Shown piece after piece: positions 36,048 through 41,017 of a stretch of 64,000 nt of DNA (the first letter of the stretch is position 1; each line of letters opens with the position of its first letter). The translations under genes and the position numbers were made by a program. Origin of the DNA: an uncultured Enterobacteriaceae bacterium (GTDB lineage Bacteria > Desulfobacterota > Binatia > Bin18); assembly GCA_964460065.1 (NCBI GenBank), contig CAYWPF010000025.1:25504-89503 (forward strand). The letters are read 5' to 3'. The notes beneath the pieces are model-generated. The model worked only from the letters and a program-made list of their open reading frames with translations, was not told the origin of the DNA and made no database searches.

Positions 36048-38051
36048 TTATTCGGCCTCGTGTTCCTCCGCCAGCGCTGTCCATTCGGCATATTGTTCGC
36101 GAAGCGTCTCTTTCACGCGAGAATAGTCGGCATTTACTTGTCGAGCTTTCGCATGATCGCGGAATATTTGGTCGTCCGCGAGAGCTCCTTCGATAGTAGC
36201 CTTCTTTTCCTCTAAGTGCGCGATAGTCTGTTCAAGAATGGTCAGTCTTTTAGCTCGTTTGTGCCGTTCCGCCCGTTCCGCCTTTTGACGTTGATAGGAA
36301 TTTTGGCCATGTTTTGCCTGATGAATTGCTGCTAGAGCCCCCTGTATTCCCTCGTTGTTCGGAGGGCGTCCCCGGCTAGTCCGTTTCTGAGGGTTAGCTT
36401 CTAAACTATGTTGGGGCTCGGCTCTGTTGACGGTTTTCCAATCCAAGAACTCCTCGAACGTCCCGGGATAGATCGTGTATGATCCGTCTGCGAGTTCGAC
36501 AACTTTTGTGACGAGGCCTCTGAGGAAGTAGCGGTCGTGGGACACCACGACGAAAGTGCCGGTGTATTGAGTCAGTGCCTCTTTGAGAATATCTTTCGTT
36601 CGAATGTCAAGGTGATTGGTCGGTTCGTCGAGGACAAGCATGTTTGAACTTTGGAGCAGCATTTTTGCGAGGGCCAGCCGACTTTTTTCGCCCCCACTTA
36701 GAACACCTACCCGCTTGCCTACGTTATCCGCCGAGAAAAGAAAGGCGCCGAGTAATGTTCGAATTTGTGGGACTATTTCTGTAGCGGCGTTACTCAGCAC
36801 TTCTTCGTACACGGTGTTGCTGGGTTGAAGCCGCTCGGCCTGCTGCTGAGCATAGTAATCGAGTGTGACCTGATGGCCCAGTTGGCGTGTTCCTAGTGTT
36901 GGTGCCTCAATTCCAGCCAAGATACGGCTCAGCGTTGATTTGCCTGATCCGTTTACACCTACCAAGGCGATCCGGTCGCCCCGCTCGACAATAAGTTCTA
37001 GGTCCGTAAACACTTTATTGTTCCCGTAGCGCTTCTCTATCCCATTTAAAGTCAATACGCGTTTTCCGCTCCTTTTTGCCGTCGGAAAATGGAAATGAAC
37101 ATCTTTTGAAGATTGCGTTGGCGCATCGAGCTTTTTCATCTTTTCGAGTTGTTTTATCCGGCTTTGAACTTGTGGAGCCTTTCTTGCATTGTATCGAAAA
37201 GTATTAATAAATCGGGTCAGTCTTTGGATCTCGTCCTGTTGATTGTCATATGCCCTTTCATAGGCCAGTGCTTGGGCGGCGGCGGTTTTTTCAAAGGTTG
37301 AGTAATTCCCCACGTATTCCGTGATAGTTTGGTGTTGCAATAAAACTACTCTATTCACCAGTCGATCAAGGAAGGCTCGGTCGTGTGAAATTAACACGAT
37401 ACTCCCTCGGTACGTTCGCAGGTAAGACTCTAGCCAGACCAATGAATCTAAATCGAGGTGGTTAGTTGGCTCATCTAAAAGCAAAACGTCGGGTTGCTTT
37501 AGGAGCAGCTTGGCAAGTGCAATACGCATTTGCCACCCTCCGCTGAATGTCTCTGTCTGAGCCGTAAACTGTGCTTCGTGAAATCCGAGCCCGGAAAGAA
37601 TTTTTGCTATGGTGGCTTTGGTTTTGAATCCACCCAATTCTTCGATTCGTGTTTGGACATTGCCCAACCGCGAAATTAACTCGTCTTGAGTTTTGTCGCC
37701 GTCCTGTGGATTTATTTCCGACCCAAATATTTCTAGCTTCTCTTGGAGGAGGGCAAGTTCTTCTTGTAATGCGGTTAATTCTGGTAGGGCCGATTGGGCT
37801 TCCGAAAAGAGGTCACGGCCGGAAATTTGAATACCCTCCTGGGGCAGGTAGCCAATTTTTGTACCTTTCCCCAAATGTACGCTGCCTTCATCCGGCTCGA
37901 TCGTTTCGGTGAGAAGACGAAAGAGTGTTGTTTTCCCAGCTCCGTTAGGCCCCACAAGACCGACTCTATCACCCTGACGGATTTGCCAAGTAAGTCCTCG
38001 GAACAGGCTCTGGTCGCCGAAAGCGAGAGAAACATTTGTCAATTGGAGCAT
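36048..38051 (-). CDS. ABC-F family ATPase (Uup/YheS/EttA-like translation-associated, no TM domain)
   Basis: Two ABC cassettes, each with Walker A (GPNGAGKTT, GVNGSGKST) and a signature motif (LSGG). C-terminal coiled coil. I trimmed the start to MLQLTNVSL. Confidence 0.85.
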   Translation of the reverse strand: MLQLTNVSLAFGDQSLFRGLTWQIRQGDRVGLVGPNGAGKTTLFRLLTETIEPDEGSVHLGKGTKIGYLPQEGIQISGRDLFSEAQSALPELTALQEELALLQEKLEIFGSEINPQDGDKTQDELISRLGNVQTRIEELGGFKTKATIAKILSGLGFHEAQFTAQTETFSGGWQMRIALAKLLLKQPDVLLLDEPTNHLDLDSLVWLESYLRTYRGSIVLISHDRAFLDRLVNRVVLLQHQTITEYVGNYSTFEKTAAAQALAYERAYDNQQDEIQRLTRFINTFRYNARKAPQVQSRIKQLEKMKKLDAPTQSSKDVHFHFPTAKRSGKRVLTLNGIEKRYGNNKVFTDLELIVERGDRIALVGVNGSGKSTLSRILAGIEAPTLGTRQLGHQVTLDYYAQQQAERLQPSNTVYEEVLSNAATEIVPQIRTLLGAFLFSADNVGKRVGVLSGGEKSRLALAKMLLQSSNMLVLDEPTNHLDIRTKDILKEALTQYTGTFVVVSHDRYFLRGLVTKVVELADGSYTIYPGTFEEFLDWKTVNRAEPQHSLEANPQKRTSRGRPPNNEGIQGALAAIHQAKHGQNSYQRQKAERAERHKRAKRLTILEQTIAHLEEKKATIEGALADDQIFRDHAKARQVNADYSRVKETLREQYAEWTALAEEHEAE

Positions 38052-38170
38052 GGCTGTAGAAGTTAAAAAAACCTTATGAAGGTTGAGTTGAACACACTTT
38101 CCGGTAATCGCCCATGAGACAAGAACTTGTTTCCCACGCACCTGCTATTAGATCCCCCTTTGGGTGTCAA

Positions 38171-38992
38171 CTAATAACTCTCATCGTCCTGAATCAACAA
38201 GGATTCTCCTAGGCCTCTAATCAGCCAGCGGTGAATGTCTGCCACAACGGTTTTTGCTGCTGGACCGTTCAACAACCAATGTCCCTCATCCGCATACGTA
38301 CAATGGTCGGCACATAGGGAGCGTACCAGGTCCCGGGCTGCATGTGCAGGCACTAGCCGGTCCTCTCCTCCCGAAATAATGAGTAAAGGACATCGTAAAG
38401 GAACCCGTGGAAAATCTATTTTGGCGCGTGTTAGCTGTCGCACTAGACGCCCGGACTCCGGTTTTAGGCTGGGCCAAACACGTGTTTGTACCGCTTCCGG
38501 TTGGGAGTGGTAGAGATACCGGAGAGATAGCGAACGTGACGGCGGAGAATGAGGGCGGTTTCGCAGAAGCGAATACAGAGCGCCCAATCTTACCAATGGC
38601 GGTGTAGGTCGAAGATTGGATTGCCAACAGTAAGGAAATAGCGGCGAAATCCAAACTAACGCTCTGGGTGTTATATCAAGTGTAGCTAGCAGGCCGAATA
38701 GGCCACCCGCATCGAATCCTATGAGTACCGGAGAAGCATCGAAACCTCTGGTGACCTCCCGAACAGTTTGTAGGCGCTCCGAAAGGGGAGTGTTGCCAAT
38801 GTCGCTATCCGTTTGTTTTTTTGGAAAATCTATGGCCCAACTACTCCAACCTCGCTGACAAAAATACCAAGCCATCTCTTCCCAGATCCAACTTCCGCTC
38901 CACAGGCCGGGCACTAGAAGCAGGGGCGCGGTAAATTTCTCTCGTTCGGGAAAGGTGGTTTCTACGACGTGCTTGCCGATTTTTTGTCTCAT
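38171..38992 (-). CDS. Alpha/beta-hydrolase fold protein with Asp in the nucleophile elbow (GFDAGG)
   Basis: 273 aa. LLLVPGLWSGSWIWEE core strand. Gly-x-Asp-x-Gly elbow as in epoxide hydrolases and dehalogenases. Confidence 0.6.
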   Translation of the reverse strand: MRQKIGKHVVETTFPEREKFTAPLLLVPGLWSGSWIWEEMAWYFCQRGWSSWAIDFPKKQTDSDIGNTPLSERLQTVREVTRGFDASPVLIGFDAGGLFGLLATLDITPRALVWISPLFPYCWQSNLRPTPPLVRLGALYSLLRNRPHSPPSRSLSLRYLYHSQPEAVQTRVWPSLKPESGRLVRQLTRAKIDFPRVPLRCPLLIISGGEDRLVPAHAARDLVRSLCADHCTYADEGHWLLNGPAAKTVVADIHRWLIRGLGESLLIQDDESY

Positions 38993-39027
38993 ACAAAAGA
39001 AAGAAGGCCCTTGTTGGGCCTTCTTTC
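38988..39027 (-). terminator. Intrinsic terminator after the small basic gene, abutting the hydrolase start codon
   Basis: gaaagaaggccc-ttgtt-gggccttctttc is a 12-bp stem. On the minus strand it is followed by TCTTTTGTAT. Confidence 0.55.
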
Positions 39028-39063
39028 ACTGCGATCCTCCGCCTCTATGATTTTGTACCTACA

Positions 39064-39171
39064 CTAGCGGCGGCGAGCTGTTTTTTTCTTCGCCGGGGCC
39101 TTGCGGGCGACTTTTTTCTTAGCCACCTTTTTCACGGCCTTTCGAGCTGTCTTTTTCTTAGCTGCGGGCAT
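39064..39171 (-). CDS. 35-aa Lys/Ala-rich basic protein (histone H1-tail-like), not in the ORF track
   Basis: I translated by hand: MPAAKKKTARKAVKKVAKKKVARKAPAKKKTARRR*. RBS GGAGG lies 5 nt upstream. A terminator follows. Confidence 0.45.
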   Translation of the reverse strand: MPAAKKKTARKAVKKVAKKKVARKAPAKKKTARRR

Positions 39172-39313
39172 AGCGACCTCCTTCGTTCTGAGTTTGGGAA
39201 CCCCTTAGTTGTTTATATGATCCTTTTTCGCATTGAGAATTCATCCTCCTACTTTTCTATCAGATGAACGACTACGTCGCAACAAAAACGTTTAGCGAAA
39301 CACAACCTAATGG

Positions 39314-40600
39314 TCATTTGTTAAATACTTGTTTACCTGCATAAACAGCGCGCGACCCGAGTTCTTCCTCTATTCGTAACAATTGGTTATATTTGGCTGT
39401 TCGTTCGCCACGACATACGCTCCCGGTTTTTATTTGACCAGCATTCAACGCGACGGCGAGATCAGCAATGCTCGTGTCTTCCGTTTCGCCCGATCGGTGG
39501 GAAATTACGGAAGAATAACCGTGCGTTTTTCCCAATGCCACGGTTTCTAGTGTTTCCGTTAGAGTCCCTATCTGATTGACTTTTATTAGGATCGCGTTCG
39601 CAGTCTTCCGTTCAATGCCAATCGCAACACGTTTAGGGTTCGTCACGAACAGGTCGTCTCCAACCAACTGGATCTTGGAGCCCAGCTCTTCCGTCAGAAG
39701 CTTCCAACCGGGCCAATCATCCTCGGCTAATCCGTCTTCTATTGATACCAGTGGGTAGGTGCTGGTCCACTTGATGTACTTTGTTATGAGGTCTGAGGCG
39801 TCCTCCGGCGGAGTCCCCGCCTTGGCGAAGATGTATTTTCCGCCGGCCGCGGTGCTGTAGAGTTCGGTCGCGGCCACGTCTAAGGCTAGCCAAATGTCCC
39901 GCCCAGCCGTGTATCCAGCCATGGTGATGGCCTCGAGTAAAAGGTCGAACGCTTCCTCGTTGGTGCGAAGATTTGGAGCAACGCCACCTTCGTCTCCAAC
40001 CGCTGTAGATAGGCCACGTCGCGTGAGTAGTAATTTTAGGCTCGAGAAAACTTCAGCACTCATTCGGAGTGCCTCTCTAAATGAGCGGGCGCCAGCAGGC
40101 ACGATCATAAACTCTTGGATGTCTATGTTGTTAGACGCATGAACCCCGCCGTTCAGGACATTGACTAATGGTACCGGAAGCGTGCGCGCGCGGGTACCGC
40201 CAAGAAATCGATAGAATGGTTGTCCTCGGGCGGCGGCGGCGGCCTTTGCTACTGCGAGGGACGTTGCAATTAGGGCATTTGCCCCGAACTTCTTTTTGTT
40301 TCGTGTTCCATCTAAGTCAAGAAGTATTTGATCAATATATGCTTGATCTTCTGCATTCTGGCCCCTTAGAGTTGCATCGATTGTAGTGTTAACCTTGCTG
40401 ACAGCTTTCTCAACCCCTTTACCGCCATATTGCTTTTTCCTGCTGTCTCTCAATTCCCAGGCTTCATGAGCGCCGGTTGAGGCGCCGGAGGGTGCTGCGG
40501 CGCGCCCTTTCGAGCCGCTCGACAATAAGACGTCGACTTCTACAGTAGGGTTGCCGCGACTGTCCAATATTTCTCTGCCGACAATTTTTTTTATCTTCAT
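39314..40600 (-). CDS. eno: Enolase (phosphopyruvate hydratase)
   Basis: 428 aa. N-terminus [24 protein letters not shown]. Enolase signature throughout. Confidence 0.95.
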
Positions 40601-40699
40601 TTAAGTTTGTTACCCTGTCTCGGCCGACGCTAGTATCTTTCGTCAGCGTAGAATGTACATCTTAATGTTGCTCCAACCGTTCAGAGTCCGTAAAATAAA

Positions 40700-41017
40700 A
40701 TGATTATGGCGGTCAGTGTGATAAGAAAGATGTGGCTCCCGTTTGTCCTCGCACTATATATTTTGTTTATTTATTTAGCGGTTTGGGGTGACCGTGGTTT
40801 AATACATCTGGCGCGCCTCGACGAAGAACAACGGGACATTGAAAGACAAGTTCGCCAATTGCTAAGTGAGAATACCGCTTTAAAATCTCGCATTGAGCGC
40901 GTCCACGGGGACGATTTATTTTTGGAGAAAGTAGCACGGGAAACTTTGGGTCTGGTACGTGAATATGAAATCATTTATCGGCGTGGGATTCCCGGTGAGT
41001 CGAGGGCGGACGATTAG
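40700..41017 (+). CDS. ftsB: Septum formation initiator (FtsB/DivIC family)
   Basis: 105 aa with an N-terminal TM helix followed by a coiled coil (EEQRDIERQVRQLLSENTALKSRIERV). Confidence 0.7.
   Translation: MIMAVSVIRKMWLPFVLALYILFIYLAVWGDRGLIHLARLDEEQRDIERQVRQLLSENTALKSRIERVHGDDLFLEKVARETLGLVREYEIIYRRGIPGESRADD

Follow-up and report, generated by a model that had tools for sequence, protein, structure and literature searches.

A small gene downstream of enolase in an uncultured Binatia-type bacterium and its predicted product, a stand-alone Lys/Ala-rich polycation

The subject of this study is a small open reading frame (ORF) that follows the enolase gene (eno) of an uncultured Binatia-type bacterium; the window, i.e. 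the whole stretch of DNA that was analysed, comprises 64,000 nucleotides (nt) of assembly GCA_964460065.1 (contig CAYWPF010000025.1, positions 25,504-89,503 of the forward strand). The ORF occupies positions 39064..39171 on the minus strand and consists of 35 codons plus TAG, with the ATG at 39171-39169 and the stop at 39066-39064 in both the sequence and the ORF list; all the 35 codons translate into the peptide that had been written in a preliminary description of this DNA, MPAAKKKTARKAVKKVAKKKVARKAPAKKKTARRR. Besides the initiator Met, the residues are limited to Lys, Arg, Ala, Val, Thr and Pro: 13 Lys and 5 Arg account for 18 of the 35 residues, that is 51% and not the 63% formerly claimed, 9 residues are Ala (26%), and acidic, aromatic and Cys residues are absent. 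The peptide weighs 3.9 kDa, carries a net charge of about +18, has a grand average of hydropathy (GRAVY) of -1.35 and contains a (K/R)KAPAKK motif. Six-frame translation of the window revealed neither paralogs of the ORF nor other Lys-dominated stretches, and a comparable ORF, defined as starting with ATG, being at least 30 amino acids (aa) long and containing at least 45% Lys plus Arg and at least 30% Lys, was found in none of 200 Markov-simulated windows of 64 kb. Positional orthologs, a sister allele and a coding signature identify this ORF as a genuine gene of a kind that is usually missed by annotation.

The upstream neighbour, eno, encodes a protein of 428 aa (39314..40600, minus strand), recognised from the ORF list and from the domains of a sister enolase; indeed, Enolase_N and Enolase_C are both recorded on the enolase of metagenome contig L086, which is 99% identical to that of the window. 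The small ORF begins 142 nt past the enolase stop on the same strand, in agreement with its earlier placement downstream of eno, and is preceded by a Shine-Dalgarno (SD) sequence, AAGGAGG (39177..39183, minus strand), in which the GGAGG already reported is separated from the ATG by the 5-nt spacer TCGCT. The stop codon is followed by a 3' untranslated region (UTR) of 36 nt (39028..39063, minus strand) and by an intrinsic terminator (38990..39027, minus strand), detected by hairpin scan and folding. The 12-bp stem previously described was recovered: its arms, GAAAGAAGGCCC and GGGCCTTCTTTC (39027..38999), form 7 G-C pairs, enclose a 5-nt loop and precede the run TTTTGT, and the terminator region folds at -35.5 kcal/mol (z = -5.3 versus dinucleotide shuffles). 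The 3' UTR also holds a conserved block, GAGGCGGAG, at 39045..39037, about 10 nt ahead of the terminator stem, which is found exactly or as a near variant in the window and in L086, L001, L002, L004, L088 and L090. No minus-strand terminator was found by the scanner between eno and the small ORF, the first one past both being that at 38990..39027; the small ORF is therefore probably carried also on transcripts reading through from eno.

In addition to the signals listed in the preliminary description, the small gene appears to possess a conserved promoter of its own, as inferred from invariant blocks in the intergenic region. This putative sigma-70 promoter (39254..39282, minus strand) is composed of the -35 element TTGCGA (39282..39277), a 17-nt spacer with an extended -10 TG at 39262-39261, and the -10 element TAGAAA (39259..39254). 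Two blocks, TTTTnTTGC and TCTGnTAnAA, are unchanged across all nine loci of the close clade, whereas the surrounding intergenic DNA has diverged; in the distant clade, near-consensus promoters of the type TTGACx-N17-TATAAT were observed at the equivalent place in the nine loci examined. The distance from the promoter to the ATG is about 80-110 nt across loci and is similar in all those of the close clade. Transcription from the putative promoter would produce a 5' leader of about 75-80 nt (39172..39250, minus strand). A separate feature of the distant clade (L009, L010, L014, L024 and L031) is the motif TTTCCAAAATG, which precedes the -35 of the K-rich ORF by about 10-15 nt in the TTGACx promoters; it may represent an UP-like element or the target of a regulator, and the clade of the window lacks it.

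Since sequence similarity cannot settle the gene status of this ORF, a positional approach was adopted, in which homologous loci were gathered from 80 genomes and 80 metagenome contigs using enolase as the anchor. The closest enolases are 71-75% identical to that of the window, plus the one at 99%, and all of them belong to Binatia-type metagenome-assembled genomes (MAGs), where the common gene order is proS-pyrF-(ftsB)-eno-[small ORF]-alpha/beta-hydrolase-ABC-F-LLM. The downstream neighbour in the window, recognised from the ORF list and from synteny, is an alpha/beta-hydrolase-like gene (38171..38992, minus strand), whose ATG is found 7 nt past the base of the terminator hairpin (about -21 kcal/mol) and lacks an SD. 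A Lys/Ala-rich ORF is present on the same strand downstream of eno in 19 Binatia-type loci: it occurs in nine of the ten loci that have an enolase identity of 71% or more, with a gap of 132-148 nt between the eno stop and the ATG, and likewise in ten more distant ones. The preliminary description had proposed a real small gene with its own terminator and had indicated, as evidence to the contrary, an ORF that is not conserved despite kept flanks; the nine close and ten distant loci contradict the latter. All 19 members of the family start with ATG preceded by GGAGG at a spacing of 5-7 nt, and all the 18 complete loci end with a strong hairpin and a T-run, with folding energies from -14 to -30 kcal/mol.

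The distribution of the gene is restricted. No Lys/Ala-rich ORF follows eno among Actinobacteria, Bdellovibrio and other outgroup loci, and none was found near eno in many of the loci that group with Binatia at an enolase identity of only about 60%. In the locus L003 the hydrolase homolog starts 4 nt after eno (L003:5284..5291) and the small-ORF cassette is entirely missing; thus, the promoter-ORF-terminator cassette, of about 320 nt, behaves as a discrete indel. Two of the loci carry unexpected titles, L001 (CAZXFE010000010.1) being named "uncultured Enterobacteriaceae" and L005 (CAMBFS010000003.1) "Klebsiella pneumoniae"; both are probably mislabelled, since in enolase identity and in synteny (proS-pyrF-ftsB-eno-ABC-F) they agree with the Binatia-type window. 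In a member of the Thermodesulfovibrionia, a similar position after eno is taken by a small basic gene of another kind: just after eno-ftsB, L023:5621..5710 encodes a peptide which we take to resemble ribosomal protein THX.

The most informative comparison is with L086 (Ga0310344_10056126), where the small ORF encodes 58 aa, with a mass of 6.42 kDa, and is among the genes called by JGI. The window peptide is built on a unit of 23 codons, AKKKTARKAVKKVAKKKVARKAP (codons 4-26; 39094..39162, minus strand), continued by a partial second unit, AKKKTAR (codons 27-33; 39073..39093, minus strand). In L086 the unit is duplicated, and a single in-frame indel of 69 nt, equal to 23 codons, separates the allele of 58 aa from that of 35 aa; all the remaining bases of the ORF, of the 3' UTR and of the terminator are identical, and five substitutions are found in the leader. 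The two copies of the unit in L086 differ at 8 nt in 7 codons, with 6 synonymous third-position changes and 1 conservative replacement of Arg by Lys; so few non-synonymous changes have a probability of about 0.0004 under random substitution. The other frames score worse on the same copies, the mirror antisense frame giving 4 synonymous and 2 non-synonymous changes. The stretch encoding AKKKTAR forms a direct repeat in the window, with 18 of 24 nt identical at a distance of 69 nt, which would be suited to mediate the gain or loss of one unit.

The same character is maintained throughout the family. The 19 members range from 16 to 141 aa and contain 36-63% Lys plus Arg, with one acidic residue overall and no aromatic residue or histidine; the motif [KR]K[AT]PA[KR]K is found in 14 of them, and the N-terminus follows the pattern M-A/P-x-x-K-K. 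The nucleotide repeat units vary by lineage, encoding AKKAVKKV, KKAPAKKAA or KKATKKKAT, while the amino-acid character is kept.

These data bear directly on the possibility that the ORF is untranslated: the region would then belong to the 3' UTR of eno or to a small RNA, and the frame would be open only as a consequence of an A/G-rich repeat. Such an interpretation draws on the lack of a terminator between eno and the region, on the tendency of Lys/Ala repeats to be open in all frames, and on the fact that gene callers skipped the ORF of the window, the ten homologs that were looked up being absent from the protein collection as well. However, it does not account for an ATG and a GGAGG that are invariant in 19 of 19 loci, for a 69-nt indel that is in-frame, for the 6:1 synonymous excess seen in this frame only, or for a composition and a KAPAKK motif that persist despite lineage-specific nucleotide repeats. 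Neither is there a sign of a structured RNA: Rfam 15 gave no match at E <= 1 over 38000..41000, which includes leader, ORF and 3' UTR, and the leaders of the close clade show no convincing conserved structure, with an RNAalifold energy of about -4 kcal/mol and no meaningful covariation. Given the combined evidence, a non-coding nature of the small ORF is very unlikely.

An open frame is also present on the opposite strand, where the ORF list contains a mirror ORF of 35 aa, Phe/Leu-rich and starting with TTG (39101..39208, plus strand). It could be regarded as the true product, as its frame gives the 4:2 ratio mentioned above between the repeat copies; its openness is a consequence of the Lys/Ala codons, which yield no stop codons in the reverse complement. 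This candidate was rejected, since its TTG start is internal and has no SD, a start codon with an SD is found on the antisense strand in just 2 of the 19 family loci, and both promoter and terminator face the sense strand. A related proposal retains the sense product and considers it an exported or membrane-active cationic peptide, antimicrobial or toxin-like, in line with a cationic sequence that contains Ala and Val and is predicted to be helical; conversely, it lacks both a signal peptide and a hydrophobic face, and with 51% Lys plus Arg it is far too polar. Taken together, an antisense product or a membrane-active peptide has a very remote chance of being correct.

The leader contains two elements that may be relevant for regulation. 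The first is an invariant box of 11 nt, AGGGGTTCCCA (39195..39205, minus strand), identical in all nine close-clade loci (L001:5385, L002:5383, L004:5384, L005:5382 and aligned positions in L086, L088, L089 and L090, besides the window, where it is in single copy), whereas the flanking leader sequence has diverged among them. A role of this box as an anti-SD was considered and discarded, as the probability that the SD pairs with it never exceeds 0.04 in the nine leaders and shuffled boxes perform no worse. The second is a pyrimidine-rich, CCUCC- or CUUCC-like stretch with which the leader begins in most loci of the close clade and which is complementary there to the SD. The predicted probability of the SD being paired is 0.7-1.0 in seven of the nine close-clade leaders, and the pairing is weakest in the window; 83% of cells pair, versus 42-66% in slid controls, and one compensatory pair is observed (L001 versus L088). 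The pairing involves about 39246..39230 with 39183..39175 in the window, corresponding to alignment columns 17-23 with 94-100. An anti-SD function of this CCUCC-like segment is no more than weakly suggested by the predicted pairing.

Database searches provided no relatives for the peptide. Pfam and NCBIfam gave no match, Pfam not even at E <= 10; a word-indexed search of 5.8 billion proteins returned no match for a padded query of 41 aa or for the 58-aa allele, and phmmer, run exhaustively over 1.84 billion representatives, was equally negative. The exact window peptide and ten orthologs were all absent when looked up in a collection of 15 billion proteins, where the enolase of the window is present; gene callers have therefore skipped the peptide. 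The earlier statement that the ORF is unannotated consequently holds for the window and for the exact peptide and does not extend to the sister allele of 58 aa, which was called by JGI. The 66-aa homolog of L002 did retrieve proteins of 69 aa from phage-like contigs, which were discarded as relatives: the likeness is compositional only, because those proteins consist of a structured N-terminus joined to a PAKKA tail. In those contigs (L081..L084, 4001..4210; up to 109 kb) the protein has a short non-repeat N-terminus and a PAKKAAKKA tail, and its gene is located directly upstream of an SNase-domain gene with a 1-nt overlap; some copies bear the JGI label "topoisomerase IA-like".

Scores against curated families of similar proteins remain below their cutoffs, which are 40 bits for Pfam PF07382 (HC2), 80 for NF038053 (hist_H1_lk_Burk), 135 for NF038052 (histone_lik_HC2) and 100 for NF050153 (Rv3852 family). 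The best family member against PF07382, the 59-aa protein of L004, reached 15.2 bits (E = 0.024); the best homologs scored 20 bits with NF038053, 11.4 bits with NF038052 and 19.5 bits with NF050153, none of these three models matching the window peptide itself. Pfam detected no domain at all in the peptide, that of linker histone H1/H5 included, and none above threshold in six homologs, and a globular linker-histone domain is excluded, since 35 aa leave no room for it. Small ribosomal proteins (bTHX, bS22, bL34, bL36 and others) were considered too; no ribosomal match was obtained with Pfam or NCBIfam, and the family ranges from 16 to 141 aa. Being below threshold in every curated family, the peptide was placed in a class defined by composition and behaviour, that of the H1-like or PAKKA polycations, which have about 35% or more Lys plus Arg, the rest being Ala, Pro, Val and Thr, hardly any acidic or aromatic residues, and short basic repeats arranged in tandem. 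The composition of the peptide, without Asp, Glu or aromatic residues and with its 23-aa repeat unit, falls within this description, and the class is also marked by in-frame polymorphism of repeat number between close strains, as observed between the window and L086. Judged from these sequence features, the small peptide belongs to the Lys/Ala-rich, H1-like polycations of bacteria, as a new and very short member that consists of the tail only, in a new phylum and with its own synteny.

The nearest counterparts are chlamydial Hc2 (HctB) and the BpH1 proteins of Bordetella and Burkholderia, which are likewise low-complexity polycations rich in Lys and Ala, with Pro, Val and Thr, encoded by stand-alone genes. 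In Hc2 and BpH1 size varies at the strain level through in-frame duplication or deletion of repeat elements (PMC2848022), as seen here for the window and L086, and in-frame gain and loss of repeat units is typical also of AlgP (PMC9239181). However, Hc2 has 165-237 aa and BpH1 182-206 aa, versus 35 aa for the window peptide, and Hc2 possesses conserved non-repeat parts at both ends, whereas the window peptide is wholly repeat or tail; moreover, these proteins belong to another phylum and another genomic context.

A second group of counterparts comprises the PAKKA and KPAA tails of Hlp/HupB, HupS, Deinococcus HU, Mycobacterium smegmatis Ku, AlgP and PhaF, which share the motif type of the (K/R)KAPAKK found here. 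These tails are predicted to be disordered, their repeat number evolves fast, and they are known or inferred DNA binders, with RNA as the ligand for PhaF and polyphosphate granules as the site for AlgP. In mycobacterial Hlp, Streptomyces HupS, Deinococcus HU and M. smegmatis Ku, the PAKKA repeats contact DNA and modulate its binding, promote end-joining or bring DNA segments together (PMC3553676), and KPAA-repeat peptides bind DNA in vitro (PMC9239181). In all these proteins the tail hangs on a folded domain, such as the HU fold, the Ku core or a phasin or helical N-terminus, which gives specificity or anchoring; the window peptide, conversely, is the tail alone.

Composition and the (K/R)KAPAKK motif also underlie the resemblance to the C-terminal tail of histone H1 noted in the preliminary description, a resemblance that goes no further than these two features. 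The C-terminal domain of eukaryotic H1 has a similar content of Lys, Ala, Pro, Thr and Val and no acidic or aromatic residues, and a transition from disorder to helix is expected for it on DNA. Eukaryotic H1 has in addition a winged-helix globular domain and acts in the context of the nucleosome, both of which are lacking for the window peptide; the likeness is most simply explained as convergent composition. A further comparison, by description only and with no relatedness in sequence expected, is with ScvA and Hq1 of Coxiella burnetii, which are also very small basic proteins from stand-alone genes. ScvA has about 30 aa, a size comparable to the 35 aa of the window peptide, and is rich in Arg and Gln, unlike the Lys/Ala-rich window peptide; it is tied to a developmental cycle, and none is known for Binatia. 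Both Coxiella proteins bind DNA and are enriched in the small cell variant, which has a condensed nucleoid (PMC4766238).

As a whole, the data are best explained, and with slightly better than even confidence, by an independently transcribed micro-gene whose product, a tail-only polycation, would bind a polyanion, most likely DNA. The gene, which combines a putative promoter and a consensus SD with a leader of about 80 nt, 35 codons and a terminator, is probably strongly translated. The resulting stand-alone and abundant polycation would most likely bind chromosomal DNA, or possibly RNA or polyphosphate, by non-specific electrostatics; the DNA, its charge neutralised by the bound peptide, would be bridged or compacted, and the number of repeats would set the charge per molecule. 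The gene evolves through in-frame gain and loss of repeat units. From the single sequence, AlphaFold predicts that residues 3-24 form a helix ending before the proline of KAPAKK (mean predicted local distance difference test score, pLDDT, 79.5). In a peptide with a charge of +18 such a helix seems plausible only on a polyanion, and the peptide may thus become helical only upon binding.

The identity of the polyanion is where the comparators diverge. A first alternative is that the target is RNA or the ribosome, the peptide acting as an RNA chaperone, as a PhaF-like modulator of translation or as a lineage-specific ribosome-associated micro-protein. In Pseudomonas aeruginosa the C-terminal domain of PhaF binds mRNA through its KPAA repeats, upstream of the SD, and activates translation (PMC12818456); in the window the small gene adjoins eno in the same orientation with no terminator between them, and its strong SD and promoter are like those of abundant translation-related genes; the THX-like peptide of L023, an unrelated genome, holds a comparable place after eno. 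On the other hand, no RNA-binding or ribosomal-protein family was matched in Pfam or NCBIfam, repeat-driven lengths of 16-141 aa are unlike those of ribosomal proteins that fit fixed pockets of rRNA, the gene is missing in L003, and its linkage to eno is one of position only. An RNA or ribosome target is thus considered unlikely, with some chance of being true. A second alternative is that the peptide organises polyphosphate granules or other polyanionic inclusions, as does AlgP, which localises to polyphosphate granules and requires its KPAA domain for their even spacing (PMC9239181). The small peptide is a pure polycation and would be compatible with such a role; however, it lacks the structured N-terminal domain of AlgP and PhaF, no polyphosphate genes are found in the neighbourhood proS-pyrF-ftsB-eno-[ORF]-hydrolase-ABC-F, and nothing favours polyphosphate over nucleic acids, so that this role appears improbable.

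Some observations weigh against a DNA-binding micro-gene as well. Homology to any characterised protein cannot be established by sequence searches, the scores with the family models being far below threshold; the promoter in the clade of the window matches the consensus at only 4/6 and 4/6 positions and was not called by a simple scanner, because its -10 ends in A; judging by the comparators, the polyanion could equally be RNA or polyphosphate; and the spread of 16-141 aa, together with the absence in L003 despite conserved flanks, suggests a dispensable or dosage-type role more than an exact structural one. The earlier interpretation of the small ORF is nonetheless supported as far as computation reaches.

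A broader hypothesis would see in these loci an unrecognised Binatia-type family of tail-only micro-proteins that bind chromatin or other polyanions, in which AGGGGTTCCCA may be a dedicated control site for translation or transcription and repeat switching between strains would tune the charge dosage, a minimal, protamine-like way of organising the nucleoid or RNA that is undescribed in free-living bacteria; we consider it doubtful in this full form. In kind the small gene is unsurprising, a modest extension of a type of bacterial protein already known. Its relevance lies in the fact that a gene which is conserved, bears strong expression signals and comes from a globally distributed phylum without cultured members usually escapes gene callers, and that homology searches are blind to it; tryptic proteomics would probably overlook it too, since trypsin would yield very short fragments. 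For the annotation of MAGs, it makes a case for the rescue of low-complexity micro-ORFs on the basis of synteny and signals. If the peptide is an abundant coat of the nucleoid or of RNA, it would be among the smallest stand-alone H1-tail-like proteins known; with existing alleles that measure 16, 25, 35, 58 and up to 141 aa, the family would offer a clean natural system for a basic disordered tail that works without a folded anchor.

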